From positions 465,731 to 529,730 of the forward strand of contig JAHQWK010000001.1 in assembly GCA_029856145.1 (NCBI GenBank): a stretch of DNA of 64,000 bases. The letters run 5' to 3'. This DNA comes from Promethearchaeia archaeon (GTDB lineage Archaea; Asgardarchaeota; Lokiarchaeia; Sigyniarchaeales; SOKP01). Below are positions 8,615-44,781 of this stretch, in pieces; positions within the stretch are counted from its first letter, which is position 1; the number at the start of each line of letters is the position of its first letter. The translations under genes and the position numbers were made by a program. Under the pieces are notes generated by a model, which saw nothing but the letters and a program-made list of their open reading frames with translations, did no database searches and was not told the origin of the DNA.

Positions 8615-8655
8615 AATTTTTCTAATACCTTTAATTGAAAAAGATAGAATATAGA

Positions 8656-16014: not shown

Positions 16015-16201
16015 AATTCCATAAGCTTCAAGGATTAAAATAATAACATTGTAAATAATAACATTATAAATTTGTACTTATCGTAAAATGGTATAGATTA
16101 GTGATTTATAGCTGAAATTCAAAAAATTTTTATGATTTCCCGAATTCTATTCTTCAATTATATCATGAATTTAATTAGAAATTTATACAAGTGAATTATT
16201 T

Positions 16202-21263: not shown

Positions 21264-22160
21264 ATGACAATGAACGAAAACCAAGAAGAAGAAAGCGAAG
21301 AACAAACAATAGAAGAAAATCAATTGAAAGAAGATGATTTGGAAGCTTACCTAAGAGATATGAAAGCACTTGAATCAGATTTTTCAGATATGGAGGATCT
21401 AGACATGGATGAGCTTCAAGAGATACAAGACGCAATTGAGAAGGTTAAGGAGGGGGAAGAAATACATGATGATGGCTTAGATAGCGATGGAATCCCTTCT
21501 GAAGAAATGCTTGTGGATGAATATAAAACTCAAGAAGAAGTTAAGGAAACCATGATCTCTGATTTTTCTGACATGGATGAGATTGATTTTGATGAATTAA
21601 AAGAGATGCAAGAAGCCATTGAATCAGTAAAGCAAGAGGAAATAGAGGACTTAGCCACACCAGAAGGTGAAACTCAATACACTCAAGAAGTTTCTAAGGA
21701 ATTAGAAGAAAGGATTAAGCAAGAGCTTTTAAAAAGAAAAAAACTAGAAGTAAAGGAAATTATTACACCTGAGAAGTTTTTAGATTATGTTAAAAATAGA
21801 CGTGATAAGATATGGTACCATGCTCTTTATTATTTGGTTTTTAACGTTGAAGACTATATTGCTTCAAAAGCATTATTATATGACGTCTTAAAAGAAGTAA
21901 CAAGCAAATCTCCAATTGATCCAATTCTCGAACACCAATTTTATTTTGGCTTGGGTTATCTTTTAAGGCTAACCTTGAATGATAGACAAGTTGTACGATT
22001 TCTAAGAGATGGAAAGTTTAAAATTAATGTTAATATTGATATTTTAAAAGAAATATTAGAAGAAGCTGGGGAACCAATAAGTACAAGGCCAGTTATAAAA
22101 GAAGAAGAAAAGAAAAAAATGTTTCAGGATTTTTTAGATGATAATTTTCTTGATGTCTAA
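21264..22160 (+). CDS. Hypothetical protein: acidic N-terminal half with a duplicated 30-aa motif, plus a conserved-looking ~110-aa C-terminal domain
   Basis: The repeat SDFSDMEDLDMDELQEIQDAIEKVKEGEEI (21375..21464) recurs as SDFSDMDEIDFDELKEMQEAIESVKQEEIE (21558..21647). Long uninterrupted ORF in a gene-dense region. Confidence 0.6.
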   Translation: MTMNENQEEESEEQTIEENQLKEDDLEAYLRDMKALESDFSDMEDLDMDELQEIQDAIEKVKEGEEIHDDGLDSDGIPSEEMLVDEYKTQEEVKETMISDFSDMDEIDFDELKEMQEAIESVKQEEIEDLATPEGETQYTQEVSKELEERIKQELLKRKKLEVKEIITPEKFLDYVKNRRDKIWYHALYYLVFNVEDYIASKALLYDVLKEVTSKSPIDPILEHQFYFGLGYLLRLTLNDRQVVRFLRDGKFKINVNIDILKEILEEAGEPISTRPVIKEEEKKKMFQDFLDDNFLDV

Positions 22161-22184
22161 GTTTGAAATTTATTTTGTAAAAAG

Positions 22185-22823
22185 ATGAATCAAAAACCAT
22201 CATTATTAATTATAGGAAATTCAAATGTAGGGAAAACTTCAATAACTAGATTATTGATGCCAAATCCTAGAAAATTTAAAGGGAAAATTGGGAAAACTCC
22301 AGGTAGCACATTATTAATAAAATCTATTACCCAAGAGAATTTACCTTATAATATAGTAGATCTTCCGGGATTTGGGTATGTAAGTCAATCAAGTCGGAGA
22401 CGGGCAGAGCATATAAAAAAGCAAATGGTAATTCATATTGAAAAGCACCATACAGATTATTTTTTTGGTTTGGTTGTAATTAATATCTTGAGGATTGAAG
22501 ATGAATTAGAAAAATATTTCATTCAGAATAAGAAAACCATTCCTCTAAGCTTTGAATTAGTTAACTTTCTTAAGGAATTTCAGATTCCTCTTTTAATAAT
22601 AATCAATAAAATTGATAAAGTATCTAATCTGGATAAAATCAAAAATATCAAATTATTTGTTGAATCAGCAAAAGAATATGGAATAAGCATTGTTCATTTA
22701 AATAAGCGCGAACTTAATAACAAGGAAGAAATTCCTTATTTAGATTTTTCAGCTTTAAAAAAAACAAATCTAGAAAAATTAAAAAAAATAATTCAACAAT
22801 TATTAAACCAAATTAAGAGATAG
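22185..22823 (+). CDS. engB: EngB/YihA-type ribosome-biogenesis GTP-binding protein
   Basis: G1 GNSNVGKTS, G3 DLPGFGY, G4 NKIDK. 212 aa. Confidence 0.72.
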   Translation: MNQKPSLLIIGNSNVGKTSITRLLMPNPRKFKGKIGKTPGSTLLIKSITQENLPYNIVDLPGFGYVSQSSRRRAEHIKKQMVIHIEKHHTDYFFGLVVINILRIEDELEKYFIQNKKTIPLSFELVNFLKEFQIPLLIIINKIDKVSNLDKIKNIKLFVESAKEYGISIVHLNKRELNNKEEIPYLDFSALKKTNLEKLKKIIQQLLNQIKR

Positions 22824-29658: not shown

Positions 29659-30165
29659 TTAATTTTTTTTTATTAAATTTTCCCAATCCAAAGTTACAAC
29701 TGTTTTATGAAGGGAATGATCATCATCAACTATATTGTATTTTAGATTTGTAAAAAGTTTTTCAGCACGAACTCGAGACTGGTTTATTGAAACTATTTTA
29801 TCATGTTTACCATGGTAAACTACAACGGGAATTTTGACTGTAGAATAAATCTTAGGATTTAACTTGGGAAAAGACAAATATGGAGCGAGTAAAATCAATT
29901 TTGATACCTTATCAGGATTTTCTAAAGTGAAGATACTCGCTATCAAACCACCAAAACTACTACCTATAATAATCCAAGGGCTTTTTTCTTTTAATATTGA
30001 ATATAATTGTTTCATACGGATCTCTAATAAAACTTTAGTTGATATGTTTGGATTGTACTTTTCAAAATCTGGAGTTAAGCATTCAGGGAGCCGTTTTCGA
30101 AGAAGTTGCCCTTTAAAACCTTTCCCTGAACTTTCAAGGCCGTGAATAAAAATGATACTTTGCAT
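29659..30165 (-). CDS. Alpha/beta-hydrolase fold esterase (YqiA/UPF0227-like)
   Basis: IIFIHGLESSG start, nucleophile elbow GSSFGG (GxSxG), and C-terminal DDDHSLH (catalytic His). Confidence 0.68.
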   Translation of the reverse strand: MQSIIFIHGLESSGKGFKGQLLRKRLPECLTPDFEKYNPNISTKVLLEIRMKQLYSILKEKSPWIIIGSSFGGLIASIFTLENPDKVSKLILLAPYLSFPKLNPKIYSTVKIPVVVYHGKHDKIVSINQSRVRAEKLFTNLKYNIVDDDHSLHKTVVTLDWENLIKKN

Positions 30166-30180
30166 AATTTTATAAGAATG

Positions 30181-31239
30181 TTAAGGCTCTCTCTCGACAG
30201 AAAACTTATCCATTTCTTCTTTCAATAATCTCATTTCCTTCTTGTGACCAAAATAGACAAGTAATCCGAAAATAGTGAAGTAAATTGTTAAAATTATCAT
30301 TGTATAAAAATAATACTTATAGGTATAACTCATAAAATGTAAAGCTAAACCAATAATGAATCCAGTGAATAATCTAGATTCAGTAGAGCTTTTTCTTAAT
30401 AAAAGTCTTTGCGTTCCCCAATCAGTTAATCCCGGTATTGGAAGGATTATGCAAAGAAGTAAGGCAATTTCCGGACTAAAATCAATTTGATAGATTTTAG
30501 ATATTAAGTACGTAGTAAAAAGAGCTATTAATCCCCCAAGTATTACTCCTGAACATCTTGAGCAAAAATAGATTTTGGTTCTTCCAAATTTAAGATAAAA
30601 TGTATGATCGCTCGCAGAGAGAGGATGATGAGTTAAGAACATATAATATAATTGTTTTTCTTCTTTTGCAAGCACTTTATCATATAGAAATAATAGTATT
30701 GGAACAATAAATAAAACTGAGATAAGTACTGCGAGTAAGAATTTGATGCCATAATTAATAAAAATAATATCAAGTGTAAATTGGCCAGGATAAAAGACAA
30801 TTTGAAAAGAAATTATGAGACTAAAAATAATGAAAGAAGTAATAATTAATGCTATGAAGGTATAAAGCACATTAATTCGTTTATGATATTTTAAAGGCTG
30901 GTATTTATAGATACCAACCAAGAATCCATAAATTGCTATAATAAAACACCATTCAATATAAATCGTTCCATAAAATGCTAACTGAAAGATAAATTCCCCC
31001 AAAAAACCAGTGATTAAACCATTTATAGGGCCTGCGAGAACAGATAGAAATGTAAAAAGCAAAAGTGTTATTCCAAACTGAATTGAAAGCTCTTGATTAT
31101 TTATAAAAATGGTAGAGATTGAGCCAAAAGGTTCAGAAATATATACATATGATATTGTAATGAACGCAATAATGAATATATTTAAAAATATACGTCTTAA
31201 AATATCATATTGCTCTTCATTATGAGCAGATTCAGTCAC
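30181..31239 (-). CDS. Polytopic membrane protein; the C-terminal half is DUF2085-like (CxxC membrane domain)
   Basis: About 9 TM helices. YFCSRCSGVILGG and a later TDWGTQ resemble the DUF2085 pattern. The N-terminal half (GPINGLITGFLGE) resembles ECF-transporter S components. Family names are from memory. Confidence 0.55.
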   Translation of the reverse strand: MTESAHNEEQYDILRRIFLNIFIIAFITISYVYISEPFGSISTIFINNQELSIQFGITLLLFTFLSVLAGPINGLITGFLGEFIFQLAFYGTIYIEWCFIIAIYGFLVGIYKYQPLKYHKRINVLYTFIALIITSFIIFSLIISFQIVFYPGQFTLDIIFINYGIKFLLAVLISVLFIVPILLFLYDKVLAKEEKQLYYMFLTHHPLSASDHTFYLKFGRTKIYFCSRCSGVILGGLIALFTTYLISKIYQIDFSPEIALLLCIILPIPGLTDWGTQRLLLRKSSTESRLFTGFIIGLALHFMSYTYKYYFYTMIILTIYFTIFGLLVYFGHKKEMRLLKEEMDKFSVEREP

Positions 31240-31294: not shown

Positions 31295-31954
31295 TTAATT
31301 AAAAATCGTATCAAGTTCTTCGATTAAGTTCTCTTTCGTCATTTCAAAACCCATACGTAGTACTTTTAAAATTATGTTTTTTCCGAAAGGAACTTTTAAA
31401 ATTGAATCATCTTGTTCTACAATAGAAATTCCTTCGTCATTATAATCAAGTTGACGCTTTAATGCTTGATATGCTTTTTCTTTTATTTTAAATGTCGCTC
31501 TGGATAATTCATTGTAATTCTTAACATCATCTTTAACATTAAAAAAAAGGATAGCTTCTTCTAATTGTGTAATGAAGCACTTTTTAGTAACTTCTTTTAA
31601 CTTTTTATAGTTACGGTGAGTGTCTTTACACTGGATGAATGTCTGGTCGTTTTTTAGATAAATAGGAAAGTTATTATTAACAACTCTTTCAAATTTTTCT
31701 TTTGAAATATCTCCATTTTGTATTAATTGTTTAGCGGAATCAAGTGTAACTCGAATTTGCTCTAGTGTACCTACTTTTGCTTCTTTATCACTCCAGTATT
31801 TATAAAATGATTTGATTATAGGTTTAACAACAAAATTTAGAGTACCCACATCTAATTCAGAATCTATAAGGTCTCGTCCGTAGTTAAGACTGGTCTCCAT
31901 TTGGTCAACCATTCTTTTCTCTAAGATCTGGTAATTTCGGTCTAAGTAGTCCAT
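31295..31954 (-). CDS. Hypothetical soluble protein, tandem paralog A (unknown family)
   Basis: 219 aa, about 50% identical by eye to the adjacent 220-aa ORF. Shared blocks: MDYL.RNY.I...RM..QM..SL..GR.LID.ELD.G.LNF.VKPI.K.FY.YW, FPIYL.NDQT..QC...H.NY..LK. Confidence 0.7.
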   Translation of the reverse strand: MDYLDRNYQILEKRMVDQMETSLNYGRDLIDSELDVGTLNFVVKPIIKSFYKYWSDKEAKVGTLEQIRVTLDSAKQLIQNGDISKEKFERVVNNNFPIYLKNDQTFIQCKDTHRNYKKLKEVTKKCFITQLEEAILFFNVKDDVKNYNELSRATFKIKEKAYQALKRQLDYNDEGISIVEQDDSILKVPFGKNIILKVLRMGFEMTKENLIEELDTIFN

Positions 31955-32064
31955 TATTCAACTCCGATCTATTTAATACTAGTAATTTTTGCAAGTTTGA
32001 TTATTTATTTAAAGTTATTATCCGAATTTATTTGTTAAAATCTATAATGAAATTAATATTTTGA

Positions 32065-32727
32065 CTATTTATTATCGTATGTTTCATTGAGTGATGTAAT
32101 AAACTCTTTTTTAGTTAACTTAAAGCCTTGTCTAAGCGCTCTAACTATTATTTTTCTCCCAATTGGGATTTTAAGCATTGATGAGTCTTCTTCAACTATT
32201 TTAATACCCATATCTGTAAATTCTAATTGTTTCCTTAAATTTTGCTCAGCTATATCTTTTGAAGGAAATGCTATTAAACATAAGTCTCCATAATCATTCA
32301 CTTCATCCTTTACCTCTAAAAATCTTACAACTTCTCTTAAATAATTTCTAAATGTTTCTTTTGCTACCTGCTTTAATCTTTCATAATTTTTATGTGATTT
32401 CGAGCATTGGGAATCCGTTTGATCATTTGCCAAATAGATAGGAAAATTCTCCTCTATAATTTTATTAAAACTCTCTTGAGTTTTCCCATTTAGTAATAAT
32501 TGTTTACCAGAATCCAATGTAATTTTAATTTGTTTTAAAGTACCAGATCTTGCCTCGCTTTTTGCCCAATAATCATAGAAAGTTTTGACGATTGGTTTGA
32601 CAATGAAGTTTAATAAACCTGTATCTAATTCAGTATCGATTAATTTTCTTCCTAATTCTAAAGATTTTTGCATTTGCTCAATCATTCGTTCCTTTATAAT
32701 CAAGTAATTTCTCTCTAAGTAATCCAA
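32065..32727 (-). CDS. Hypothetical soluble protein, tandem paralog B (unknown family)
   Basis: See paralog A. Conservation between the two copies supports real coding sequence. Confidence 0.7.
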   Translation of the reverse strand: MDYLERNYLIIKERMIEQMQKSLELGRKLIDTELDTGLLNFIVKPIVKTFYDYWAKSEARSGTLKQIKITLDSGKQLLLNGKTQESFNKIIEENFPIYLANDQTDSQCSKSHKNYERLKQVAKETFRNYLREVVRFLEVKDEVNDYGDLCLIAFPSKDIAEQNLRKQLEFTDMGIKIVEEDSSMLKIPIGRKIIVRALRQGFKLTKKEFITSLNETYDNK

Positions 32728-32919
32728 TATTAAATCTCCGTATATATTTTAAAACAAAAATATAAATTCTCAAATAATTATTATAAAAAGACTTCTATTC
32801 TTTTAAAATGATTTCATAATCATTATACTATTAATTTTATGTGTTCAAAAATCTTTATAATCGAAATAAAATTAATCAATCAATAGAAATTGAAAAAAAA
32901 AGTTTGAATTTTCTATAAA

Positions 32920-35900
32920 ATGTCAATTTTTTATTTTCGAACTTTGTTGCTTGGTTCAGACCCTGATACTATTCATTTTTATATATCAAGAGCTTTTGGT
33001 GAACCTGGCGAAGATAAGGAGACTTATGTCTCATGGTATAAAGAATTAAACGTCTTAGATAATAAATGTGATTTAGAAATTGATGCTCTTACAAGTTTTT
33101 CTGCTAATTTAGATGAAATAATTCCAACGGTAGATGGAATTGTTTATTTTTTAAATCCTACAATTCAGGAAGAGTCAGAACTTTTTGAAATGATACTTCC
33201 GGATATTTTTTCCGTAAAACGGGATATCCCTACGATTATTATGTTTTATGATCAAAATGGAATTCTTCCTATCTCTATTAATGATTTATTAACACATATA
33301 TGGGTTAATTTTCCTAGCCTTGAAGCATTTGTGAATCTTCCTCCTAACGATTTTCATCAAACTCTCCAATCTTTATGCTTAGCTATGATTAATGGAGATA
33401 CGCCATTAAATATAGAAAATGCATGGATGCGATTTCCAATATTTATACAAATGGCAAATATCTATTTTAATAACAAAAATTACTTTTATGCCGCTCAAGC
33501 TATCAGAAAAGCAGCTCAAATTGCAGAGATCTATAATAAAGAAGAATTTTTTATAATCAGTGAACAAGCAGCATACCTTTTTTCCAAAATGAATTTATAT
33601 TTAGAAGCAAGTAAAATTTTAGAAAAAGTAGATAAACGGAAATCAAGAAATTTCAAGAAGTTATATGCTGAAGCTATAGTAAGAGAGGGCAATCATTTTT
33701 TCAAAAGGAATGAATATGAAAAAGCAGCTAGAAGCTATGAAAGAGCAGCTCAATGGTCAAGTATAGAATTATTAGATAAAAAACTTATTAATGAAGCATT
33801 TAGATTAGCTATAAATTCGTGGATTTCTGCATGTAGTGTTGAGGATGCTTTTAGAATTTTTCTAAGTTTACCTCATAAAGAGGTTATCACCATTTTAAAA
33901 GAAATTTCGGATAAAATTTGTGCTGCAGCTGATTATTTGGCAAGTATTAATAATTTTGAATTAGCAAGAGAACAGCTATATAGCGCAGTTAACAGATATC
34001 AATTGGAGGATCTTTTTGATGAATTAAAAAACTTGACTACCAAACTTTCCGAAGTTCTAATTGAACTTTTTAAGCATCAAGTAAAAGAACAAAAAAAACA
34101 TGCTGCTAGAAATACTTATGATGAGATTGAAAACATGTGGATCTCTTATAAGGTAAAAAAAGTAGATTTAAATTTGACTCTAGAAGAGTTGATTAATCAA
34201 TTTTTTGAAGTTAATAATTTTGGAATGGCTACAATATTAATAGATAAATTAAGTTCAAGAAAATCCAAACAACAATTAGCAAAAGTTAGAGATGAGCTCG
34301 AAGATAAATATAGAGCTTTGAAAAAGAAAGAAGTAGAAGACAATATCAATAAAGGAGTTCAAGTTATAAGAGATTTTGGCGAAGTTGAACGAGAAATACT
34401 TATAGAGATGAATTCTCAAAAAATAACTGAAGTAAATGAATTTATTAAACATAATAGTTATTTAACAGCAGCAAATCTGCTGAAAAAACAAGCAGAATAT
34501 CTTAAAAGTATTGGAAAAGATGAAATAAGGGATCAAATTCTAACAAAATCTTTAGACATCTTGTTAGATGGTTTAGAATTTGAAAATTTCTTCATAACTT
34601 GTAATACACTCTCAGGTGAAATGAAAACCAAATATTTAACTAGAATTTTTCCAAAATATATTCAAAAATTAAATGAACTTAAGGATTCTGAGGATTATCT
34701 AAGAAAAGAAAGAATTTTTGAGAATTCAATCAGAATTTACCGAGATCAAATGCTTTATGACCATTCAAAAGAAATAAGCTTACTTTTCATAAAACTTGTT
34801 AAAACTGAAGCCTTAAGGATATTGGAGAGCGAAGATAATCTCTCTGCTGTCAATAAAGCTGAAGTTTTAATCAAAAAAGCTCTAAATATAACTTCAGCAT
34901 ATCTGGAAAAAGAGGAAAATATTAAAATTACTTTTAACAAAATCTATAAAAAAATTACTGAAATTTATATTGAATTAGATAACTTGCATTTAGCACACGT
35001 TTATAATGATAAAATTGAAAAACCAACTTACAAAATAGAACTCAATAAGAAAATAGAGAAACTTGAAGCTAAGAAAAGTGAAATTAGATCTAAAAAAGCT
35101 AAGGAAACACGTAAAGGAGAAGAATTAAAGGAAAAAGATTCAATTATCGAAAAAAGAGCGCAAGAAGCGAGATTAGATAAAGAAAATGATATGAAAGAAC
35201 GAAAAGGATTAATAAGAGGATATTTCAAAGATGGTTTGAGTTATTTAAAATCCCAACAGTATGATGAAGCGCTTGAGATCTACAAAAATACAATGAATCG
35301 ATTAAATTTGACTAAAAAATATAAATTAGCAGGAGTTTCTTTAGCCATAGCAAGTTTAATACTTATGAAACAAAATAAATTTGAACAAGCGAGGAATTTA
35401 TTAAATGAGACAAAAAAGAAATTATCTGGTTTAGCTAAATTATTTTCTGAAACATTTGCGGTTACATTGATCGAATATGTTATTGATTTGAAGAGTTTTC
35501 AAGATGAAGAAAAATTGAAAGAATCACTGCACTTTTTTGAAATACTCCCATTATTTGAAGAGGAATTATTTTTATTATATGATCTAATAGGCGAAGAATA
35601 TCAAAAGGAAGAAAAGCGTGAAAAAACTATTGAGACGTTCGCAAAACAAAAAGAAATTGAAAGGATTGTTAAAAAGCTAGCAGGATCTATTGAAAAAAAA
35701 ACACATCACATAAAACAACGAGAGGCAATCAAAAGCCAATATTGGAGACTTATATTAGATGATATCTTTAATGGAAAAATGATAAATGCATCAATAGGTT
35801 ATTTTGACATAATACCAAAACTAATCAAAGAAGGTTATATTAAACTAGCTGCAGTTAGTTTGATCTTAGGTTCGATAATCCTTATTAATGAAAAAACAGT

Positions 35901-36648
35901 TAAAATTTCTGAAGAAACATTCCAGAAACATGTAGATGAAAATAAATCTGATTTAAAGCCTCTTCCAGAAATCGAGATTATGAAGTATTTTTTCCCTGCA
36001 ATAAGAAATGATGAAAAATCGGTTATTAAACTAATCATTGATTCATTTATCGAGAAATTGGTTTTGTTCGAACCTGAAATTCAGATATTAAGAAATATTG
36101 CTGGAGAAGAAATTTCGGAAGAAGAAGAAATTGAAGAAATGTCAAGAAAAGAATATGGAAAATTATCAAAAATACGAATAGATTTTGAGCAAAGATATGG
36201 CAAACTACATTCTAAACAAGGAGATGCTAGAAGAGATAAAGAAAATTCATTAAAGAAAAGAAAACCAATGAGAAAGAGGTATTATTTATTGATATTAGAG
36301 TTGTTGGAAACAAAAAAATTTAAGGAGGGTGCAGAAAAATACTTAGAATTAGCATATAGTTTCTCTAAAAGGAAAGATCTCGAGAGTAGTTCATTAATGG
36401 TGATTTTTTATGGATTAGCTCTTTTAAAGGCAGAAGAACCCTTAAAATCAATTAAAAAGAATATTAATATTTATTTAAATAGCTTAGGAGTTAACAAAAA
36501 ATTGGTCGAAGAAACATTTTATATTATGCTAATTATGTTTCTGATTGATGTAAAACTATATAATTTTGACAAATTTTTGCCTAAAATTAAAGAAATATTG
36601 GAGATACTGCCTATGTTCGAAGAAGAGAAGGTTTTAATTGAAGAATAA
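32920..36648 (+). CDS. Large (1,242 aa) protein: N-terminal degenerate small-GTPase-like domain plus TPR/alpha-solenoid with a central K/E coiled coil
   Basis: Residues 1 to ~160 align by eye, with matching spacing, to the window's Rab-like GTPases, but the motifs are lost: G1 GSDPDTIH (32953..32976), G3 DALTS (33082..33096), G4 YDQN (33247..33258). Many TPR-like hairpins follow, for example YAEAIVREGNHFFKRNEYEKAARSYERAAQ and GYFKDGLSYLKSQQYDEALEIYKNTM. Confidence 0.65.
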   Translation: MSIFYFRTLLLGSDPDTIHFYISRAFGEPGEDKETYVSWYKELNVLDNKCDLEIDALTSFSANLDEIIPTVDGIVYFLNPTIQEESELFEMILPDIFSVKRDIPTIIMFYDQNGILPISINDLLTHIWVNFPSLEAFVNLPPNDFHQTLQSLCLAMINGDTPLNIENAWMRFPIFIQMANIYFNNKNYFYAAQAIRKAAQIAEIYNKEEFFIISEQAAYLFSKMNLYLEASKILEKVDKRKSRNFKKLYAEAIVREGNHFFKRNEYEKAARSYERAAQWSSIELLDKKLINEAFRLAINSWISACSVEDAFRIFLSLPHKEVITILKEISDKICAAADYLASINNFELAREQLYSAVNRYQLEDLFDELKNLTTKLSEVLIELFKHQVKEQKKHAARNTYDEIENMWISYKVKKVDLNLTLEELINQFFEVNNFGMATILIDKLSSRKSKQQLAKVRDELEDKYRALKKKEVEDNINKGVQVIRDFGEVEREILIEMNSQKITEVNEFIKHNSYLTAANLLKKQAEYLKSIGKDEIRDQILTKSLDILLDGLEFENFFITCNTLSGEMKTKYLTRIFPKYIQKLNELKDSEDYLRKERIFENSIRIYRDQMLYDHSKEISLLFIKLVKTEALRILESEDNLSAVNKAEVLIKKALNITSAYLEKEENIKITFNKIYKKITEIYIELDNLHLAHVYNDKIEKPTYKIELNKKIEKLEAKKSEIRSKKAKETRKGEELKEKDSIIEKRAQEARLDKENDMKERKGLIRGYFKDGLSYLKSQQYDEALEIYKNTMNRLNLTKKYKLAGVSLAIASLILMKQNKFEQARNLLNETKKKLSGLAKLFSETFAVTLIEYVIDLKSFQDEEKLKESLHFFEILPLFEEELFLLYDLIGEEYQKEEKREKTIETFAKQKEIERIVKKLAGSIEKKTHHIKQREAIKSQYWRLILDDIFNGKMINASIGYFDIIPKLIKEGYIKLAAVSLILGSIILINEKTVKISEETFQKHVDENKSDLKPLPEIEIMKYFFPAIRNDEKSVIKLIIDSFIEKLVLFEPEIQILRNIAGEEISEEEEIEEMSRKEYGKLSKIRIDFEQRYGKLHSKQGDARRDKENSLKKRKPMRKRYYLLILELLETKKFKEGAEKYLELAYSFSKRKDLESSSLMVIFYGLALLKAEEPLKSIKKNINIYLNSLGVNKKLVEETFYIMLIMFLIDVKLYNFDKFLPKIKEILEILPMFEEEKVLIEE

Positions 36649-36657
36649 AAAGATTTT

Positions 36658-37581
36658 TTAATCGGCCATATTAGCATAATTTTGTAAATCCTTGACACGC
36701 ATTCTCAGAGTAACTTCAGTAACCCTAGCTAATTTTGAAATTTCTTTTTGAGTTCGGTTCTCATTACAAATTTTCGAACCAATATAAATAGCTGCTGCTG
36801 CTATCCCTTTAGGATCCTTTCCCGCCGAATTAAATCCACTTTCCCTAGCTTTTTCAATAATTTTAACAGCTATATTTCGACATTTCATAGATAGCTTTAA
36901 TTCTTCATTAAATTTATCTACATAACGCTCACTAGAAAAGTGAGTCACTTTCAAACCTAATTTCGGCAATACTTCCATCAAAATTAAACGATAACTTTTG
37001 ATCACTTTTTTTTTAGGAATTTGTGCAACTTTTGTAATCTCTTCGGCAGTTCTGGGTATTCCATGGACTCGTAAAGCCGCAAAAATCGAAGCTGATAATA
37101 GGGTATCAATACTACGACCCATTGTTAATTTCTTTTTTACTGTTTGAGTATAAATCCGAAGTGCATCCTCTGCAACCGCATCAGGAATTCCTAATCTCTT
37201 TTGTAAACGCTGTAAATTTGGTAAAGCAATCCATAAATTTCTTTCATAGCTAGTTGTTAGTGATCTATGTATTTTAGCTAATCTATTGAACTTTGACTTA
37301 TATTTTGGACTTAATAACGTACCTCTGGCATCTCTAGAACCTCTAATAATGGTTCTTGGGCCAATAGGACTGTATACTCTCTCGTTACTTTTTCTTTTTT
37401 GGATTTCTTCTTGAGTAAAAGCTCTCCGAGGACTATCATCAAGAATACGAGAATATACAAATCCGCAATTTAAACACACATACCAGCCATCCTCTTCCGA
37501 AATTTTTGGGCTGTCACAGCAAGGGGGTCCTTCTTCGGTGCCATCTTCAAAAAAATCATCATCTTCAAAATGTGCTGGCAT
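36658..37581 (-). CDS. tfb: Transcription initiation factor B (TFB/TFIIB family)
   Basis: N-terminal zinc-ribbon region CCDSPKISEEDGWYVCLNCG (37465..37521), B-reader/linker, and two cyclin-fold repeats (ALPNLQRL....AEDALRIY; CRNIAVKIIEKA....AAAAIYIGS). 307 aa. Confidence 0.9.
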   Translation of the reverse strand: MPAHFEDDDFFEDGTEEGPPCCDSPKISEEDGWYVCLNCGFVYSRILDDSPRRAFTQEEIQKRKSNERVYSPIGPRTIIRGSRDARGTLLSPKYKSKFNRLAKIHRSLTTSYERNLWIALPNLQRLQKRLGIPDAVAEDALRIYTQTVKKKLTMGRSIDTLLSASIFAALRVHGIPRTAEEITKVAQIPKKKVIKSYRLILMEVLPKLGLKVTHFSSERYVDKFNEELKLSMKCRNIAVKIIEKARESGFNSAGKDPKGIAAAAIYIGSKICNENRTQKEISKLARVTEVTLRMRVKDLQNYANMAD

Positions 37582-37781
37582 AGTTTTTAAAATGCAAAAG
37601 GACGGTAATTGAATTTTTAATTTTTTTCCTTAGAAATACATAAATTAAAAAATATATAAGTGTAATCTATTTCAAATTAACTTGTGAAAATTTATATCTT
37701 TATCTTTTTAACTAGTATAGTAATAAATAATAATAAAAATTAAATCAACCTATTAATAATAAAGAAAAATCGTTATTTGTA

Positions 37782-39020
37782 ATGTCTACTGAAGTCTCTA
37801 GCTTGATAAAAGTCATCTCTAAATTTTTAGACCCGAAATCTGCTAAAGTTAGTAAATTAAAAGAAATTGATGACATTTTAAAATTACATATTGATTCTTA
37901 TAAATTTATTGATAAAGAAGAATTCACAATCATTAAGCAATTATTGGACATCACGACCATTGGAGATGCCTCAAAGTTAAATAAAGATGACCCGTTTGGG
38001 AGTCTTATTGAAATTGAAGAAACGGATGATTCTATAGAATTAGCAATAGACTTGCAGAAAAAAATTGAGGAATTAAAAGAAAAATACCCTTTTCTTGAAA
38101 CTAAATTAAAGAAAACAGGCACAATTAGTTCACTTATTGCGAGTATTAAAGAGGAAAAAGAAGGAATAGAGATTAAAGGTCAAAAAGTTCTTGTATGTGG
38201 TTTAGACGCAGCTGGGAAAACATCATTGTTATCCAAATTTGGAGGACGTTTAGGAATAAGTGATATGATCGCAACACATCCAACAAAAGGAGTGGTACGA
38301 ATGAAATTTGGCACTAGCAATTTGAATCTATTTATATGGGATTTGGGTGGTCAAGAGGAATATAGAGAAAGATATTTAAATAATCCAGAGCAATATTTTG
38401 TCCAATTGGATTTATTAATGTTTGTAATTGATGTACAGGATCCTGATAGATTTGAAGAATCTCTTCAATATTTTGATAAGATAATAGATTCAATAATCTT
38501 GTTAGAGGAAACTCCCTATATATTAATATTCATTCATAAGTATGATCCTGATCTGAAAAATGACCCAAAAATACTCTTAAATGTTGAACTTTTAAAGGAT
38601 AACTTAAATGAACTTTTAAAAAGTAAAACGAGCGAATTTGAGCTTGAGATCTATTTAACATCAATATATTCTCTTATTTCTCGTGAACCTCAGTTTGCTA
38701 AATATATAAAGAATTTGATGAGTGCAAGTTCTTCTCTAACTGATCCGACAGTACGAAAAGTGGAGGGTCTTGGAAAGACTTTAGAAGAAACTTTGAATGC
38801 TGTAATTCGTTTATCAGAAAGTATTTCTATGCAACTCAGCGATCTTGATAATCGACTTCGAGCAATAGAGTCAGGAGCGTTTCAAGTTGCTCAAAGTGGT
38901 ATTCCAATTGAAATTGCTAATCCCAATCAGCCAACCGCAAGGCGTCAAGAAAATGTACGTTTAAATGTCCTTAATGAGTTAAAAGATTTATTTAGCAAGA
39001 GGAAAAGTCTAGACCTTTAA
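37782..39020 (+). CDS. Arf/Sar/Arl-type small GTPase with a 134-aa N-terminal and a ~105-aa C-terminal coiled-coil extension
   Basis: G1 GLDAAGKTS (38199..38225; the eukaryotic Arf consensus is GLDAAGKTT). G3 WDLGGQ (38337..38354; Arf is WDVGGQ). G4 is HKYD (38535..38546) instead of NKxD. Confidence 0.85.
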   Translation: MSTEVSSLIKVISKFLDPKSAKVSKLKEIDDILKLHIDSYKFIDKEEFTIIKQLLDITTIGDASKLNKDDPFGSLIEIEETDDSIELAIDLQKKIEELKEKYPFLETKLKKTGTISSLIASIKEEKEGIEIKGQKVLVCGLDAAGKTSLLSKFGGRLGISDMIATHPTKGVVRMKFGTSNLNLFIWDLGGQEEYRERYLNNPEQYFVQLDLLMFVIDVQDPDRFEESLQYFDKIIDSIILLEETPYILIFIHKYDPDLKNDPKILLNVELLKDNLNELLKSKTSEFELEIYLTSIYSLISREPQFAKYIKNLMSASSSLTDPTVRKVEGLGKTLEETLNAVIRLSESISMQLSDLDNRLRAIESGAFQVAQSGIPIEIANPNQPTARRQENVRLNVLNELKDLFSKRKSLDL

Positions 39021-39029
39021 ATCTTTAGC

Positions 39030-39749
39030 CTATTCTTTTTTAAAAGATTTCATAATCTTCTTATAGAATGTTAACAAAAAAATAGCAAAAAATATACTAA
39101 TCGAGAGTAATAGATACCCTATATTACTAATCAACATTGTATTAATTTCTTGATATTGAATTTCATATGCTACAAACTGTTCTAAGTAGGTTAGCATTTT
39201 ATATATTAGTGGACCGGTTAAATAGAGCGTTATTAAAAATCCTATTATACCAAAAATGCAACCAAATATGACATCTGTAGGGTAATGCACACCAAGCTGA
39301 ATTCTTGAAAATGAAACCATAATCACAAGTAAAAATAGTAAAATACAAATAATTGGTGATTTCGTAAAAAACAAACCAAATAATAAACCTTGTGCCATAA
39401 CATTATACGAATGCCACGACGGAAAACTTCTCGAAGTAGGTTTTCGTTCAAAAACAATTATTTCACCTTCTTCAAATCTTTCAAATGGCCTTTTTCTTTT
39501 TACTGTTTGTTTTATCACTAATATTAGAATTAATCCAGTAAGAAATGTAGCGGAGATATAGGCTAATAAAAAAGGATCATACCAAATAAATAAATAAAAA
39601 GCAATTAAGAAAAGCCATAAAGTTTCTCTTCCAAAAAAAGAAATAAATCTTAAAATGATTGTGAATGGTTTACCCCCTAAACCATTGTATTTCATAATAA
39701 TTCTTTGGTCCCATTGGTCAATTCTATTTGAAAATTCTTTGAAATCCAT
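39030..39749 (-). CDS. PAP2-superfamily (type 2 phosphatidic acid / polyprenyl-diphosphate) phosphatase
   Basis: Three PAP2 motifs: KRKRPF (KxxxxxxRP), SFPSWHS (PSGH) and SRIQLGVHYPTDV (SRxxxxxHxxxD). Six TM helices. Confidence 0.85.
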   Translation of the reverse strand: MDFKEFSNRIDQWDQRIIMKYNGLGGKPFTIILRFISFFGRETLWLFLIAFYLFIWYDPFLLAYISATFLTGLILILVIKQTVKRKRPFERFEEGEIIVFERKPTSRSFPSWHSYNVMAQGLLFGLFFTKSPIICILLFLLVIMVSFSRIQLGVHYPTDVIFGCIFGIIGFLITLYLTGPLIYKMLTYLEQFVAYEIQYQEINTMLISNIGYLLLSISIFFAIFLLTFYKKIMKSFKKE

Positions 39750-40616: not shown

Positions 40617-42521
40617 TCAACTAATTGAATCTTCTTTATCAAAAAAAACTCTGTAAAACAGTTCTTTTTCACCTATATCTGGCGGAGTTATCTTAGTATA
40701 GCCTCCCTTATGAATAACACGAATTGTTTCTTTATTTTGAATGTGTATATTTCCATAGAATCCCTTTATACCTTTTTCCTTAGCAACAATAATTATATGT
40801 TGATATAGAAATGTACCAATACCCTTTCCTCGATAATCTTCCCTAACTAAAAAGCTATATTCCGCCATATTCATTTGAGGGTTTAAATAATATGTAGCAC
40901 TTCCTATCATTTCTTCTTTTCCAATTTCCCCAATAAATGCTCCTAGTGAAAAAACATTATGATAATCAATATTAACTTCACTCTGAGTTTTTGAATGTGT
41001 GAATTCTTTTCTAAGCTCAAAAAATCGTAAATATCTATCTCTTTCATTTAATGAATAATACAATTCTTTAAGGACTTGTTCATCTGTAGTTTTAACAGGT
41101 CGAATATTAATTTTTTCTCTATCTCTTGTTGTATAAATGGTTTCGTATTCTGAAGGATATAAACAAATTCGACCATCATCATCACAAGGAAGCATCTGAT
41201 CAGAAAATATATAATTCAATTTTTTAGCTTCGTCTAATAATGATTGTCGGAATTTTGGGTGAGCTATACAAATCAACTCAAGCACTCTTTCACGAATAGT
41301 TTTACCATGAAGGTATGCCACACCCCATTCAGTCACAATATAATGAACATCACCACGAGATAACAATATTCCTGCTCCTTCATCTAGATGAGGCACAATT
41401 CGTGATTTTTCACCATCTCTAGATGTTGAAGGTATTATTATAATGGGTTTTCCTCCTTTAGAAAATGCTGCACCCCTCATAAAATCAATAGTTTCACCTA
41501 ATCCCGAATAAAAACTGTAACCCTCAGTAGCAGCATTTACTTGTCCAGTCAAATCAATTTGTCTAGCAGAATTGACAGAGACCATTTTTTTATTCATTCC
41601 AATGTATCTAGGATTACATACATAATCAGATGGAAAAAATTCTATATAGGGATTATTGTCTACAAAATCATATAATTTTTTTGTTCCTAAAGCAAAACTA
41701 GTAAGAATTTTTTCAGGATGGAAATTCTTTTTTCTACAAGTCAATACTCCGTTTTCAATGAGTGGTATTACATTGTCTGTAATATAATGAGAATGCATTC
41801 CAAGATCTCTTTTATCCTTTAGAAATTTTAAGCTTGCATTTGGTAAGTCACCAAAACCTATATGAATCGTAGATTTATTTTCTATTATGTTTGCAAGATT
41901 TTTTCCGATTCTTTCAGCTATTTCATCAGGCTCATCAAAAATAAATTCTAATAACGGTGTGTCATTAAAGACAAAAAAATCAATTTCTTTCATATGTATG
42001 AAACTATTTCCTAAAGTTCGCGGCATTTGTGGGTTAATTTCAACAATAGTGATATAGGATGATTGAGCTATTGGCTTCGCAATATCTACATTAATCCCTA
42101 AAGAGCAAAAACCATAGGGATCTGGGGGAGAAACTTGTATAAGGGCAACATCGATATGTTTCTTACCAGTTAGAAATAAAGATGGAATTTCACTAGTAAA
42201 AATAGGTGTATAGTCTGCTTGACCTTTGTTAATTTCCTCTCTAAGAGTTTTTCCAATAAAAAATGCATTATGTCTAAAGAGATCCTCTGCCTTATCCTTA
42301 AAATATTTTTCTGGACCTATAGTTAAGAAGTGAAGTATTTCAGTATCAATTAATTTCTCTGAGTGTTTAATCAATTCTGATGTTAGTAACTGTGGCTCTG
42401 AACATCCAGAATCAATAAAAACTCTATTTCCAGGAATTATTTTTTTAATTGCTTCCTCTGCTGTTATTTCCTTATCTTTCCATTTTTCTCTCCAGTCTTC
42501 TTTCATAATATTAGATTTCAC
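40617..42521 (-). CDS. Fusion protein: acetyl-CoA hydrolase/transferase-family domain (aa 1 to ~470) plus a C-terminal Pat-type GNAT acetyltransferase (aa 471-634)
   Basis: The N-terminal part has CoA-transferase family I-like blocks (GNRVFIDSGCSEPQ, GINVD, SVNSARQIDLTGQV, GLGETIDFMRGA). The C-terminal part (40620..41111) has INIRPVKTTDE...RYLRFF...IDYHN...AEYSFLVREDYRGKGIG, the pattern of the GNAT domain of bacterial Pat/YfiQ. Confidence 0.82.
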   Translation of the reverse strand: MKSNIMKEDWREKWKDKEITAEEAIKKIIPGNRVFIDSGCSEPQLLTSELIKHSEKLIDTEILHFLTIGPEKYFKDKAEDLFRHNAFFIGKTLREEINKGQADYTPIFTSEIPSLFLTGKKHIDVALIQVSPPDPYGFCSLGINVDIAKPIAQSSYITIVEINPQMPRTLGNSFIHMKEIDFFVFNDTPLLEFIFDEPDEIAERIGKNLANIIENKSTIHIGFGDLPNASLKFLKDKRDLGMHSHYITDNVIPLIENGVLTCRKKNFHPEKILTSFALGTKKLYDFVDNNPYIEFFPSDYVCNPRYIGMNKKMVSVNSARQIDLTGQVNAATEGYSFYSGLGETIDFMRGAAFSKGGKPIIIIPSTSRDGEKSRIVPHLDEGAGILLSRGDVHYIVTEWGVAYLHGKTIRERVLELICIAHPKFRQSLLDEAKKLNYIFSDQMLPCDDDGRICLYPSEYETIYTTRDREKINIRPVKTTDEQVLKELYYSLNERDRYLRFFELRKEFTHSKTQSEVNIDYHNVFSLGAFIGEIGKEEMIGSATYYLNPQMNMAEYSFLVREDYRGKGIGTFLYQHIIIVAKEKGIKGFYGNIHIQNKETIRVIHKGGYTKITPPDIGEKELFYRVFFDKEDSIS

Positions 42522-42798
42522 CTTTTATTCTAGTTTAATTTAATTCTTTAAAATATAAATATAATCTCCAGTCTCTTTATTAATTGTATTATCATCAATA
42601 TAATGTTTTTGAAATTATAAATAAAATGTTTAAATTCAATTCTATATATCTCTCAATTGATTCAAATCTGTCCATTTAAATCTAAAAGGTTTAAATGTGA
42701 TGTGTATAAAAAAAAATCTTTAAAATGGTTAAAGAATTTATTAAAATTAGAATTCTAAATAATATAAATTGACTGAAAATTTGTTTAAGTGAAGAATT

Positions 42799-44781
42799 AT
42801 GTCAGAAGAAGATAAGAAAATGGAAAGTATTCTAACAGAGACTCGTAAATTCGACCCAGTTAAACTAAACGAGAAGTTTGCGAAAACTGGCATGTCTTTT
42901 GAAGAATATAAGAATCTATATAAGCAATCAATAGAAGATATGGAAGGTTTCTGGGGAGAACAAGCTAAATCTCTTGATTGGTTCAAACCCTATGAAAAAG
43001 TTTGGGAAAAAACCGATCTATTTCCTGGTAAGTGGTTTATTGGCGGTAAACTTAACGTTGCTTACAATTGCCTTGATAGGCATGTAAAAAATGGAAAAGG
43101 TGATCAAGCAGCTCTTATTTGGGAAGCTGATGAGCCCGGACAGATTAAATCTTATACTTATAAAGAATTACTTGCTGAAGTAAGTAAAACTGCAAATGCT
43201 ATGAAAAAAGTTGGATTAAAAAAAGGCGATAGAGTCACAATTTGGCTTCCTATGATTCCTGAATTGGCAATTATTATGTTAGCATGCGCTCGAATTGGCG
43301 TTATTCATTCAATTGTTTTTGGTGGCTTTTCTAAAGAAGCAGTAAAAGATAGAATTGAGGATTCTGATTCTCGATTACTCTTCACAAGTGATGAAACAGC
43401 ACGTGCGGGTAAATTTTACCCCAAAATAGCTGATGTAGTCCAGATCATTAATGATGTACCAACGATTGAGCATGTCATTGTTGTAAAGCGAACTGGAAGA
43501 GACGTACCTCATACTGAAAAAGATATCTGGTATCACGACTTCATTGAAGGAATGAGTGAGGAATGTGAGCCTGAAATGATGGACTCTGAAGATACACTAT
43601 TCATTCTTTATACAAGTGGAACTACTGGAAAACCCAAGGGCGTTAATCATACTACAGCAGGCTATATATTATTTACATCTATTACCCATAAAATCGTATT
43701 TAATTACCATGAAGGTGATATCTGGTATTGTACTGCAGATATTGGTTGGATTACAGGTCATTCTTATATTGTATATGGACCTTTAGCTAATGGTGCTACT
43801 TCATTAATGTTTGAGGGAGTTCCAACTTATCCTGATGTTGATCGTTTCTGGGATATTGTAGAACGTCATAAAGTGACTCATTTCTATACAGCTCCTACTG
43901 CAATTCGTGCTATAATGAGATATGGTGATGATCATGTTAACAAGCATGATCTTAGTTCATTAAAAGTCCTAGGTACTGTTGGAGAACCTATAAATCCCGA
44001 AGCATGGACATGGTATCATAGAGTTGTTGGAAAAGAGAAATGTCCTATAGTTGATACTTACTGGCAAACTGAAACCGGGGGGTTTATTATGACCCCAATC
44101 GCTACAGCAACACCCACAAAACCTGGGTCTTGTTGTCTACCATTTTTAGGTATTAAACCAATCATTTTCGATTTAGAAGGGGATGAAATTACAGAACCAA
44201 ACGAAGGTGGATACTTTGCAATTGCTCAAAGTTGGCCGGGTATGTTACGTGATGTTTGGGGTGATACTGAGAGATTTAAATCAACTTATCTCGAAAAATA
44301 TCCAGGATATTATTATACTGGTGATGGAGCACGACGAGATGAAGATGGTTATTATTGGATTTTAGGTAGACTTGATGATGTTATTAAAGTATCTGGACAT
44401 AGAATAGGAACCATGGAAGTAGAATCTGCTCTTGTAAGTCATCCAAAAGTAGCTGAAGCAGCAATTGCCCCATTTCCCCATAAAATTAAAGGGCAGGCAA
44501 TATGGGCGTATGTTACTTTAATGCAAGGAGTTGAAAAATCTGCTAAATTATCCAAAGAAATTAGAATGCATGTTAGACAAGAAATTGGGCCTGTATTTCA
44601 ACCAGACGTTATTCAATTTGCTGATGCCTTGCCTAAGACGAGAAGTGGTAAGATAATGAGAAGAATATTAAAAGCTATTGCCGCTGGCACGAATATTGGA
44701 AATGTTACAACATTAGCTGATCCCTCTGTAGTAGATGCTTTACTTGAAGAACGTAAAAAGATGGATGTTGAAATAGGTTAA
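42799..44781 (+). CDS. acs: Acetyl-CoA synthetase (AMP-forming)
   Basis: YTSGTTGKPKG (A3), WWQTETGG-like YWQTETGG, YYTGDGARRDEDGYYWILGRLDDVIKVSGHRIG, and C-terminal A10 motif PKTRSGKIMRR. The regulatory/catalytic Lys (K618) is at 44650..44652. Confidence 0.97.
   Translation: MSEEDKKMESILTETRKFDPVKLNEKFAKTGMSFEEYKNLYKQSIEDMEGFWGEQAKSLDWFKPYEKVWEKTDLFPGKWFIGGKLNVAYNCLDRHVKNGKGDQAALIWEADEPGQIKSYTYKELLAEVSKTANAMKKVGLKKGDRVTIWLPMIPELAIIMLACARIGVIHSIVFGGFSKEAVKDRIEDSDSRLLFTSDETARAGKFYPKIADVVQIINDVPTIEHVIVVKRTGRDVPHTEKDIWYHDFIEGMSEECEPEMMDSEDTLFILYTSGTTGKPKGVNHTTAGYILFTSITHKIVFNYHEGDIWYCTADIGWITGHSYIVYGPLANGATSLMFEGVPTYPDVDRFWDIVERHKVTHFYTAPTAIRAIMRYGDDHVNKHDLSSLKVLGTVGEPINPEAWTWYHRVVGKEKCPIVDTYWQTETGGFIMTPIATATPTKPGSCCLPFLGIKPIIFDLEGDEITEPNEGGYFAIAQSWPGMLRDVWGDTERFKSTYLEKYPGYYYTGDGARRDEDGYYWILGRLDDVIKVSGHRIGTMEVESALVSHPKVAEAAIAPFPHKIKGQAIWAYVTLMQGVEKSAKLSKEIRMHVRQEIGPVFQPDVIQFADALPKTRSGKIMRRILKAIAAGTNIGNVTTLADPSVVDALLEERKKMDVEIG

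Follow-up and report, generated by a model that had tools for sequence, protein, structure and literature searches.

Asgard archaea are searched for membrane-trafficking precursors, and gene order is often the sole clue available. Pseudo-GTPase domains are familiar parts of scaffolds, examples being CENP-M, the dynein light intermediate chain and the p190RhoGAP pseudoGTPase domains. Asgard genomes are rich in small GTPases, with 94 GTPase asCOGs (Asgard clusters of orthologous genes; bioRxiv 10.1101/2020.10.19.343400) and 37 Rab-like GTPases in Loki (PMC10933270); thus, a small GTPase near any given gene is not improbable in itself. Most Asgard genes for eukaryotic signature proteins lie outside conserved neighbourhoods (bioRxiv 10.1101/2020.10.19.343400), and the GTPase genes of MK-D1 are generally not in operons with regulators (PMC10933270). 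Among the eukaryotic GTPases, the Rag proteins form dimers of unequal nucleotide state that dock on large scaffolds (PMC10933270), and Asgard proteins once classed as Arf-like ("Arfl") are reported to group near Rag/Rup2, outside the Arf clade (PMC11914678). The locus considered here lies in a 64,000-nt stretch of a Lokiarchaeial contig (JAHQWK010000001.1, positions 465,731 to 529,730; the whole stretch is called the window below) and centers on a 1242-aa protein with a pseudo-GTPase head and tetratricopeptide (TPR)-like repeats, referred to as the giant (32920-36648, plus strand). It is surrounded by two uncharacterised paralogs (parA and parB, together par), a transcription factor B (TFB), a 412-aa small GTPase and a PAP2-family membrane phosphatase. 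From this gene order, the initial annotation proposed either a primitive membrane-remodelling or scaffold module, by analogy with the Arf/Sar GTPases that nucleate alpha-solenoid coats, or a regulatory unit using its own TFB.

The adjacency of these genes probably reflects, for the most part, inherited gene order and not a GTPase/solenoid/lipid-phosphatase module; the genes would be transcribed separately, in a Lokiarchaeial region that is rich in housekeeping genes and rearranges slowly. About 120 related loci were compared overall, grouped in three tiers by the similarity of their giants. Tier i, obtained by scanning one genome per GTDB species with an alignment of the giant, holds 80 loci from 80 bins in which the giant is 42-83% identical; gene order was read by tblastn of the window proteins, and counts are over loci extending far enough. 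The order abH-DUF2085-parA-parB-giant-TFB-GTPase-PAP2-PHP-AcCoA (acetyl-CoA) hydrolase, in which abH is an alpha/beta hydrolase and DUF2085 a polytopic membrane protein, is found in nearly all 80. The conservation extends well beyond these genes: those between 24177 and 44781, which also include genes for a radical SAM protein, a nucleoside phosphorylase (PNP), a helix-turn-helix (HTH) protein, acetyl-CoA hydrolase/GNAT and acetyl-CoA synthetase (ACS), form a block of at least 17 genes and 20 kb in which each is collinear in 83-100% of the tier-i loci. Along the block, the genes are present in 49/53, 52/56, 56/56, 57/57, 65/65, 66/66, 69/69, 70/70, 73/73 (TFB), 64/66 (GTPase), 57/61 (PAP2), 54/58, 53/58 and 40/48 loci; the sole exception is a small open reading frame (ORF) at 29060, detected in 30/62. 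Since unrelated flanking genes are equally collinear, gene order within tier i carries no information particular to the six genes.

Rearrangements are few but informative. An inversion in one lineage separates the GTPase gene from those of TFB and the giant, with both the TFB and GTPase genes staying intact. In two loci (L040 and L041), GTPase-PAP2-PHP-AcCoA hydrolase are missing after TFB; a second contig, from a different assembly (L081), carries a GTPase protein identical to that of the L041 genome, intact at 81% identity, and here the gene keeps PAP2-PHP-AcCoA hydrolase but abuts an inverted upstream segment. Two other loci (L059 and L078) have insertions between TFB and GTPase, and PAP2 is missing from the locus in five (L038, L043, L091, L094 and L096). 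A side observation concerns the bins themselves: several of those with this block (55-80% protein identity; the JBHL... series among L001-L080) go by the names Thor-, Odin-, Hod- or Hermodarchaeota in NCBI; these labels look unreliable, the gene content and order matching those of Lokiarchaeial bins.

More distant giants, reached by searching residues 1-500 of the giant against cluster representatives, include two further tiers. In tier ii, the giant (~1100-1290 aa) is 27-36% identical to that of the window, and in tier iii (~1090-1108 aa) 21-25%; one tier-iii member is labelled Sigynarchaeota. Their contexts come from exact-sequence look-ups and a metagenome scan, with neighbours tested by hmmsearch. 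Within 10 kb downstream of the giant in three tier-ii loci (L084, L085 and L086), there is no TFB, GTPase, PAP2, PHP or AcCoA hydrolase gene, and the downstream genes of the three differ from one another. Upstream, a single par gene lies 0.15-3.4 kb from the giant in L084, L085, L089, L093, L098, L118 and L119, i.e., in all seven loci whose upstream sequence reaches 1.8 kb or more, at giant identities of only 26-31%; DUF2085 directly follows par in six of the seven (L084, L085, L089, L093, L098 and L119). Zero to three unrelated genes (HTH, a 137-143-aa protein, radical SAM) intervene between par and the giant. By contrast with abH, which is collinear in 65/65 tier-i loci but not near the giant in tier ii, par and DUF2085 stay by the giant in 70/70 tier-i loci as well. 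As an aside, one tier-ii locus (L085, 15696-18900) has two genes with UQ_con/RWD ubiquitin-conjugating domains 2-5 kb downstream of its giant homolog.

In tier iii (L082, L083, L087 and L088, representing three distinct contexts), hmmsearch finds no window neighbour by the giant, par and DUF2085 included. Instead, EF-2 adjoins the giant on one side and is itself followed, farther out, by a CCA-adding enzyme in three of these loci (L082 and L087 included); OST3/6 lies on the other side, downstream, where L087 and L088 also carry an alpha/beta hydrolase and L088 Ribophorin I. The unassigned neighbours in tiers ii and iii (137-143 and 301-314 aa) have no homologs in the window. The window itself encodes a CCA-adding enzyme and EF-2 (14557-18454) 14.5 kb upstream of the giant, and STT3/AglB at 2580-6458. 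The presence of EF-2 and the CCA-adding enzyme near the giant in both the window and tier iii implies that the distant giants are positional orthologs, with the intervening genes added or moved later, and suggests that the region as a whole is positionally orthologous even between distant Asgard classes. A comparative neighbourhood check, which the initial annotation had recommended, thus finds TFB, GTPase and PAP2 unlinked from the tier-ii and tier-iii giants within 10 kb, the very lack of linkage it had named as telling against the module; the proximity of the paralogs to the giant, on the other hand, persists where the giants themselves have diverged to the extent seen in tier ii.

Other tests of functional linkage add little. 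Rate covariation was computed for 15 genes in 29 species (105 pairs) from non-negative least-squares branch lengths on a common neighbour-joining tree with 46 branches. Nothing emerges for giant-GTPase (rho 0.14, rank 22/105), giant-par or GTPase-PAP2, and giant-PAP2 reaches 0.11; positive pairs include parA-parB (0.47) and AcCoA hydrolase-ACS (0.42), both sensible, and PAP2-PHP (0.43). Given the low power of this exploratory analysis, the result is an absence of support, not a disproof. The two divergent promoter regions, parB/giant and TFB/GTPase, have no k-mer of 9 nt or longer in common, only A/T-rich 7-8-mers, and a common regulatory motif was rejected on this ground.

Several observations weigh against inherited gene order as the whole explanation. 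Long downstream flanks are available in only three tier-ii loci, and the ortholog of the 412-aa GTPase was not located in tier-ii/iii genomes among the 120 closest GTPase homologs listed. Within the clade, giant/TFB is never broken (73/73) and TFB/GTPase is broken in only 2/66; the background rearrangement rate of the clade is too low for conserved order to discriminate between the readings. The rates of TFB and GTPase covary (rho 0.36, rank 5/105, uncorrected p ~0.01), and this value, together with an unusually conserved promoter region, makes some co-regulation of this divergent pair possible. The rate covariation of par with the giant is zero or negative, the link of par/DUF2085 to the giant being one of proximity. 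Finally, the lack of deep linkage leaves room for a lineage-specific functional link in the clade of the window.

What kind of protein is the giant? It is a cytosolic protein whose head keeps the Ras fold but none of the canonical nucleotide-binding motifs; TPR-like repeats follow the head. An AlphaFold2 (AF2) model of residues 1-175, based on 46 homologs, has a predicted local distance difference test score (pLDDT) of 87.4 and a predicted template-modelling score of 0.86, and its topology, b1-a1-b2-b3-a2-b4-a3-b5-a4-b6-a5, is exactly that of Ras. At E<=0.001, a Foldseek search of the PDB finds 1541 matches; each of the 50 listed is a small GTPase of the Ras superfamily (Rap1, KRas, MRas, Rab), with E values of ~1e-8 (top ~7e-9), template-modelling scores of 0.63-0.72 and identities of 9-17%. 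The G1 (GxxxxGK[ST]), G3 (DxxG) and G4 (NKxD) motifs are missing in all tiers of the giant family, with LLLGSDPDTIHF, EIDALTS and FYDQNG at the respective sites, and no P-loop Lys/Ser (GK[ST]) is present in close or distant homologs of any tier. Pfam has no match to the head, and a profile search of PDB sequences with the giant yields nothing meaningful. Because the Ras fold is modelled and the nucleotide motifs are missing in close and distant homologs alike, "pseudo-GTPase head" is a sound description, with the loss of nucleotide binding predicted from motif loss. A comparison of profiles (hhalign) detects no similarity between the head and the neighbouring GTPase family (probability 0.2%), so the head is not a recent copy of that GTPase, an origin that was considered and rejected.

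The ~1000 residues that follow the head are predicted to form TPR-like repeats with duplicated C-terminal modules. TPR_2 matches residues 250-278 above its cut-off (32 vs. 27 bits), four further TPR families match below theirs, and TPR is all that Pfam sees in the giant. Residues 743-886 and 1096-1240 are an internal duplication (28% identity over 145 aa, E 3e-10), both copies ending in LP[LM]FEEE, and the ~160-residue segment at ~906-1066 is present in the 1240-aa forms and missing from the ~1086-aa forms, even among close relatives. The family has 257 members found, all restricted to Promethearchaeota; residues 1-500, searched against 1.84 billion cluster representatives, match only 90. The giant therefore represents an undescribed Promethearchaeota-restricted family of ~1100-1250 aa in which a Ras-fold head is set on a TPR-like array. 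The initial annotation had read it as a TPR protein with a dead GTPase head, and in this it was largely right, both for the head (Ras fold modelled, G1/G3/G4 gone family-wide) and for the repeats.

If the downstream neighbours are inherited company, which genes might work with the giant? The most credible partners are par and DUF2085, because these alone stay nearby when all else has changed. The two par proteins are true paralogs, as had been proposed (51% identity over 219 aa, E 4e-85), with 485 homologs, all in Promethearchaeota, none of them named and none with a Pfam domain; profile searches give no meaningful PDB match, and there is no PHROG relative. The only lead is a weak similarity to FtsX_ECD that recurs in 21/25 members. 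PHROGs and PADLOC give no match except one trivial sub-threshold match, and a viral or defence-system reading was rejected for lack of a match to any of their families. The four genes parB-parA-DUF2085-abH are co-directional, with gaps of 110, 55 and 15 nt, and look like one transcription unit, as judged from spacing and orientation; the left boundary drawn by the initial annotation cuts this run, leaving out DUF2085 and abH. The DUF2085 protein combines an ECF-S-like N-terminal half with a DUF2085 C-terminal half and is encoded directly downstream of par on the same strand. In eight tier-i loci (L033, L038, L043, L067, L071, L072, L076 and L078) and in all tier-ii loci par is single-copy; the tandem duplication, missing from these deeper branches, is therefore younger than the par-giant linkage.

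In the mechanism tentatively proposed, the giant would act as a scaffold, its dead Ras-like head and TPR array serving as protein-binding surfaces, and par/DUF2085 would link this scaffold to the membrane. That par and DUF2085 are the giant's only likely co-workers, acting in this way, is an idea prompted by proximity, and its chances are put at somewhat short of even. The alternative closest to it, that par works only with DUF2085 in an operon-like pair and that the giant is just one more inherited neighbour, so that none of the genes singled out by the initial annotation would work together, is unlikely, though it explains why par and DUF2085 are co-directional wherever present, with the gap shrinking from 55 nt to 22 nt or an overlap in tier ii (L084, L085), why unrelated genes can part par from the giant there, and why tier iii has neither gene near the giant; the flat or negative par-giant rate covariation speaks for it as well. 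It does not account for the observation that, out of ~20 tier-i neighbours, only par and DUF2085 stay in tier ii (7/7 loci), where the downstream side is fully reshuffled, nor for the matching family sizes (257 giants vs. 485 par, about two per genome). The scaffold hypothesis involving par and DUF2085 is accordingly narrower than the module and testable.

The neighbouring GTPase was labelled Arf/Sar-type in the initial annotation, and this family assignment was rejected. The Pfam match to Gtr1_RagA (PF04670; 77.0 bits, 1.9e-21, above the cut-off) exceeds that to Arf (72.3 bits, 4.3e-20). Among PDB sequences, 8yl2, entitled [quoted passage not shown], is best (E 1.7e-28, 35% identity), and it also leads the Foldseek ranking, in which S. 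pombe Gtr1 and human RagA come next and Arf1/Arf6 after them. Neither the AF2 model nor the orthologs reveal an N-terminal amphipathic helix; the N-terminus (MSTEVSS...) leads into a multi-helix domain of 122 residues, which precedes the G domain in all orthologs. Together, these searches show the predicted protein to be a motif-intact small GTPase of the Rag/Gtr-like group, not of the Arf/Sar type, even though its orthologs carry the NCBI name "ADP-ribosylation factor-like protein"; the published placement of Arfl proteins (PMC11914678) is consistent with this result. That the gene encodes a small GTPase with extensions was seen correctly: the helical domain (1-122) is followed by the G domain (~133-300; 38178-38681) and long C-terminal helices (330-372 and 390-409). 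In orthologs down to 45% identity, G1-G5 (GLDxAGKT, PT(K)G with T168, WDxGGQ, [HN]KxD, TSI[YF]) are invariant or nearly so, G4 being HKxD rather than NKxD in most, and the protein would be a bona fide, independent GTP switch. The AF2 model has a pLDDT of 64 overall, 74-87 in the N-terminal domain and 36-62 in the C-terminal helices, the modest overall value probably being explained by a shallow alignment; it contains no roadblock-like beta-sheet, as far as the low-confidence C-terminal region can tell, and the Gtr1_RagA match ends at profile position 162/232. The protein probably self-associates or oligomerises via its C-terminal helices, and the N-terminal helical domain would confer partner or location specificity. 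The window holds a second GTPase-containing pair at 21264-22823: a gene for a 298-aa protein without a Pfam match and, 24 nt further on in the same orientation, one for a 212-aa small GTPase of the MMR_HSR1/FeoB_N type; the two are also adjacent in L081.

What remains, then, of the primitive coat or scaffold module, in which the GTP-bound GTPase would recruit or regulate the giant on a membrane, with PAP2 tuning the lipids there? In the clade of the window, the genes adjoin in 57-73 of 61-73 species, the head of the giant is folded like a GTPase partner, no switch motif is missing from the GTPase, the motifs of the membrane enzyme PAP2 are intact, and Rag proteins in eukaryotes do pair in unequal nucleotide states and dock on large scaffolds. 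Yet the linkage is no stronger than background synteny; it is broken by the inversion with no loss of the TFB or GTPase gene, by the five losses of PAP2 from the locus, and by the disappearance of TFB, GTPase and PAP2 from the surroundings of tier-ii/iii giants. The giant-GTPase rate covariation is slight, and the alternating strands exclude co-transcription. A Rag-like GTPase that lacks a membrane-inserting helix further weakens the analogy with coats. Such a module is therefore quite improbable. Bolder still, and a long shot, is an analogy with the unequal Rag dimers on their scaffolds: the giant may be an ancient scaffold specific to Asgard archaea that occurs from Lokiarchaeia through to Sigynarchaeota-like lineages and is positionally orthologous beside EF-2; its dead head would pair with an active small GTPase, the Rag-like neighbour being the obvious candidate in this clade, and its membrane anchor would be par/DUF2085. 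If true, this would be a prokaryotic forerunner of GTPase-controlled membrane scaffolds.

The two remaining genes look like housekeepers. TFB contains two TFIIB repeat stretches (Pfam, 4.9e-36; PRK00423, 5.7e-69), scores 232 bits in NCBIfam TFIIB, below the subfamily cut-off of 384, and has DDSPRRAF in its B-reader region. Its zinc ribbon reads CC...CxxC, the first knuckle being CC instead of CxxC (PPCCDSPKISEEDGWYVCLNCG); this peculiarity, pointed out in the initial annotation, is real and kept in 29/29 species. No other gene of the block is as conserved as TFB, which is 81-99% identical across tier i and has 207 members in one 90% cluster; it is a very highly conserved protein of the general-factor type, its conservation fits a general factor rather than a module-specific regulator, and most likely it serves general transcription. 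A ~60-nt block in the TFB/GTPase spacer opens with a BRE (TFB recognition element)/TATA-like GTGAAAATTTAWATC and runs on into an A/T-rich leader (ATAAATAATAATAAAAA), with more than 90% column conservation in 64 loci/species whose GTPase proteins are only 45-92% identical; in L081 (9900-10000), following the inversion, the proximal half is kept and other sequence stands in place of the distal half. The block reads as a strong ordinary archaeal promoter plus leader. That the adjacent CC-ribbon TFB paralog specifically drives the giant, the GTPase or both is thus extremely improbable: the divergent arrangement over 200 bp with its conserved BRE/TATA-like block, the atypical ribbon, the sub-cut-off NCBIfam score and the TFB-GTPase covariation are its points, set against a conservation and cluster size as for a general factor, the lack of TFB by the giants of tiers ii and iii, the inversion that parts TFB from GTPase, and a promoter of ordinary appearance. 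PAP2 matches PF01569 at 3.4e-20, with the undecaprenyl-diphosphatase families, below their cut-offs, as the nearest in NCBIfam; KQTVKRKRP, PSWH and SRIQLGVHYPTD in the translation correspond to the consensus KxxxxxxRP, PSGH and SRxxxxxHxxxD, the catalytic motifs are intact, and the protein is probably a housekeeping membrane polyprenyl- or lipid-phosphate phosphatase.

The features of the region are collected in Table 1. The ORF listing reproduces all six ORFs and the four spacings of the initial annotation, with their coordinates and strands; its domain calls for TFB and PAP2 also stand, as does its statement that the genes are not a single operon, given that the strands alternate. Its two functional readings, the membrane module and the TFB-run unit, fared poorly. 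The gaps are 192 nt (parB/giant), 9 nt (giant/TFB), 200 nt (TFB/GTPase) and 9 nt (GTPase/PAP2); parB/giant and TFB/GTPase are divergent, and giant/TFB and GTPase/PAP2 convergent. The G+C content of the window is ~30% throughout, and identical or near-identical copies of all its proteins are found only in Promethearchaeota/Lokiarchaeia metagenome bins.

Table 1. Coordinates of the genes, giant segments and non-coding elements between 29659 and 39749 of the window.
Feature	Coordinates	Strand	Remarks
Alpha/beta hydrolase, abH (168 aa)	29659..30165	-	Pfam Abhydrolase_1 5e-12; last gene of the parB-parA-DUF2085-abH run
Polytopic membrane protein, DUF2085 (352 aa)	30181..31239	-	Pfam DUF2085 2e-13, ECF-ribofla_trS 3.4e-5
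parA (219 aa), uncharacterised	31295..31954	-	51% identity to parB
parB (220 aa), uncharacterised	32065..32727	-	Divergent from giant; parA paralog
parB/giant divergent intergenic region, 192 bp	32728..32919	.	Partly conserved blocks in 74 loci
Giant residues 1-165, Ras-fold pseudo-GTPase head	32920..33414	+	AF2 model, Foldseek; no Pfam match
Giant residues 166-1242, TPR-like helical repeats, charged linkers, C-terminal modules	33415..36648	+	TPR_2 match, internal repeat
Giant module 743-886	35146-35577	+	Internal repeat
Giant variable module ~906-1066	35635-36117	+	Presence/absence among homologs
Giant module 1096-1240	36205-36639	+	Internal repeat
TFB (307 aa)	36658..37581	-	Convergent with giant; TFIIB repeats 4.9e-36
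Conserved non-coding block 5' of GTPase gene	37682..37745	+	BRE/TATA-like GTGAAAATTTATATC then A/T-rich leader
Rag/Gtr-like small GTPase (412 aa)	37782..39020	+	Pfam Gtr1_RagA 1.9e-21; PDB 8yl2
PAP2-family membrane phosphatase (239 aa)	39030..39749	-	Convergent with GTPase; Pfam PAP2 3.4e-20

Farther out in the window, at 40617-44781, a 634-aa protein that joins an acetyl-CoA hydrolase/transferase to a GNAT acetyltransferase domain is encoded divergently from acetyl-CoA synthetase. The two are highly conserved, at 75-94% identity, and covary in rate (rho 0.42); they may be an acetylation-regulated ACS pair. At 6602-11529, bacterial-type UvrB and UvrA genes lie in tandem beside aIF5B (11655-13460).

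The case shows how gene order can mislead: a neighbourhood kept in dozens of genomes is no more strongly conserved than its flanking genes and is gone at greater distance. The useful residual result is a pseudo-GTPase/TPR family that Pfam does not detect, and the testable question left is whether the giant works as a scaffold with par and the DUF2085 membrane protein. Asgard GTPases of the RagA-like and Arf-like sorts are already known, as are TFB and PAP2; the architecture of the giant and the par family were not found in the literature searched, and neither Pfam nor NCBIfam has models for them. No paper was found on 8YL2/8ZLA, LokiRagO or the locus tags Lokiarch_03710-03750, and a literature search for pseudoGTPase and Asgard likewise returned nothing.

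How does the locus compare with known systems? With the Arf/Sar-nucleated alpha-solenoid coats (COPI, COPII, AP/clathrin), the likeness is only general, a small GTPase gene and a helical-repeat gene in one region; the locus offers neither a beta-propeller nor a domain of the Sec23/24, adaptin or longin type, its GTPase is without an amphipathic helix, and linkage is not conserved beyond one clade. Arf/Sar1/Arl, including the Asgard Arf clade (AArfs; PMC11914678), is the second-best family for the GTPase by Pfam (72 bits) and by fold, and WDxGGQ occurs in both, but the GTPase is without the amphipathic N-terminal helix or Gly2, and its G4 is mostly HKxD, not NKxD. The Rag/Gtr proteins (RagA-D, Gtr1/2, LokiRagO) are closest to its G domain by sequence and fold. 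They have in common with it WDxGGQ, the HKxD-type G4 and the TSI[YF] G5; on the other hand, their C-terminal roadblock domain is not recognisable in the GTPase, which has long low-confidence helices there instead, they lack the 130-residue helical N-terminal domain that it possesses, and no Ragulator, GATOR, roadblock or longin partner is encoded within the region examined near its gene. A widely conserved "Arf-like" Lokiarchaeial GTPase thus moves towards the Rag/Gtr side, and a different eukaryotic analogy applies. TFB resembles archaeal TFB and eukaryotic TFIIB in its two cyclin-like repeats, N-terminal ribbon and RAF-containing B-reader region, and differs in its CC first zinc knuckle and sub-cut-off NCBIfam score. 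As for the giant, a Ras-fold head at the N-terminus of ~1000 residues of TPR-like repeats has, to our knowledge, not been described. Like the known pseudo-GTPase scaffold domains, to which it bears no sequence relationship, its head keeps a Ras-like fold without nucleotide motifs, joined to an interaction scaffold.

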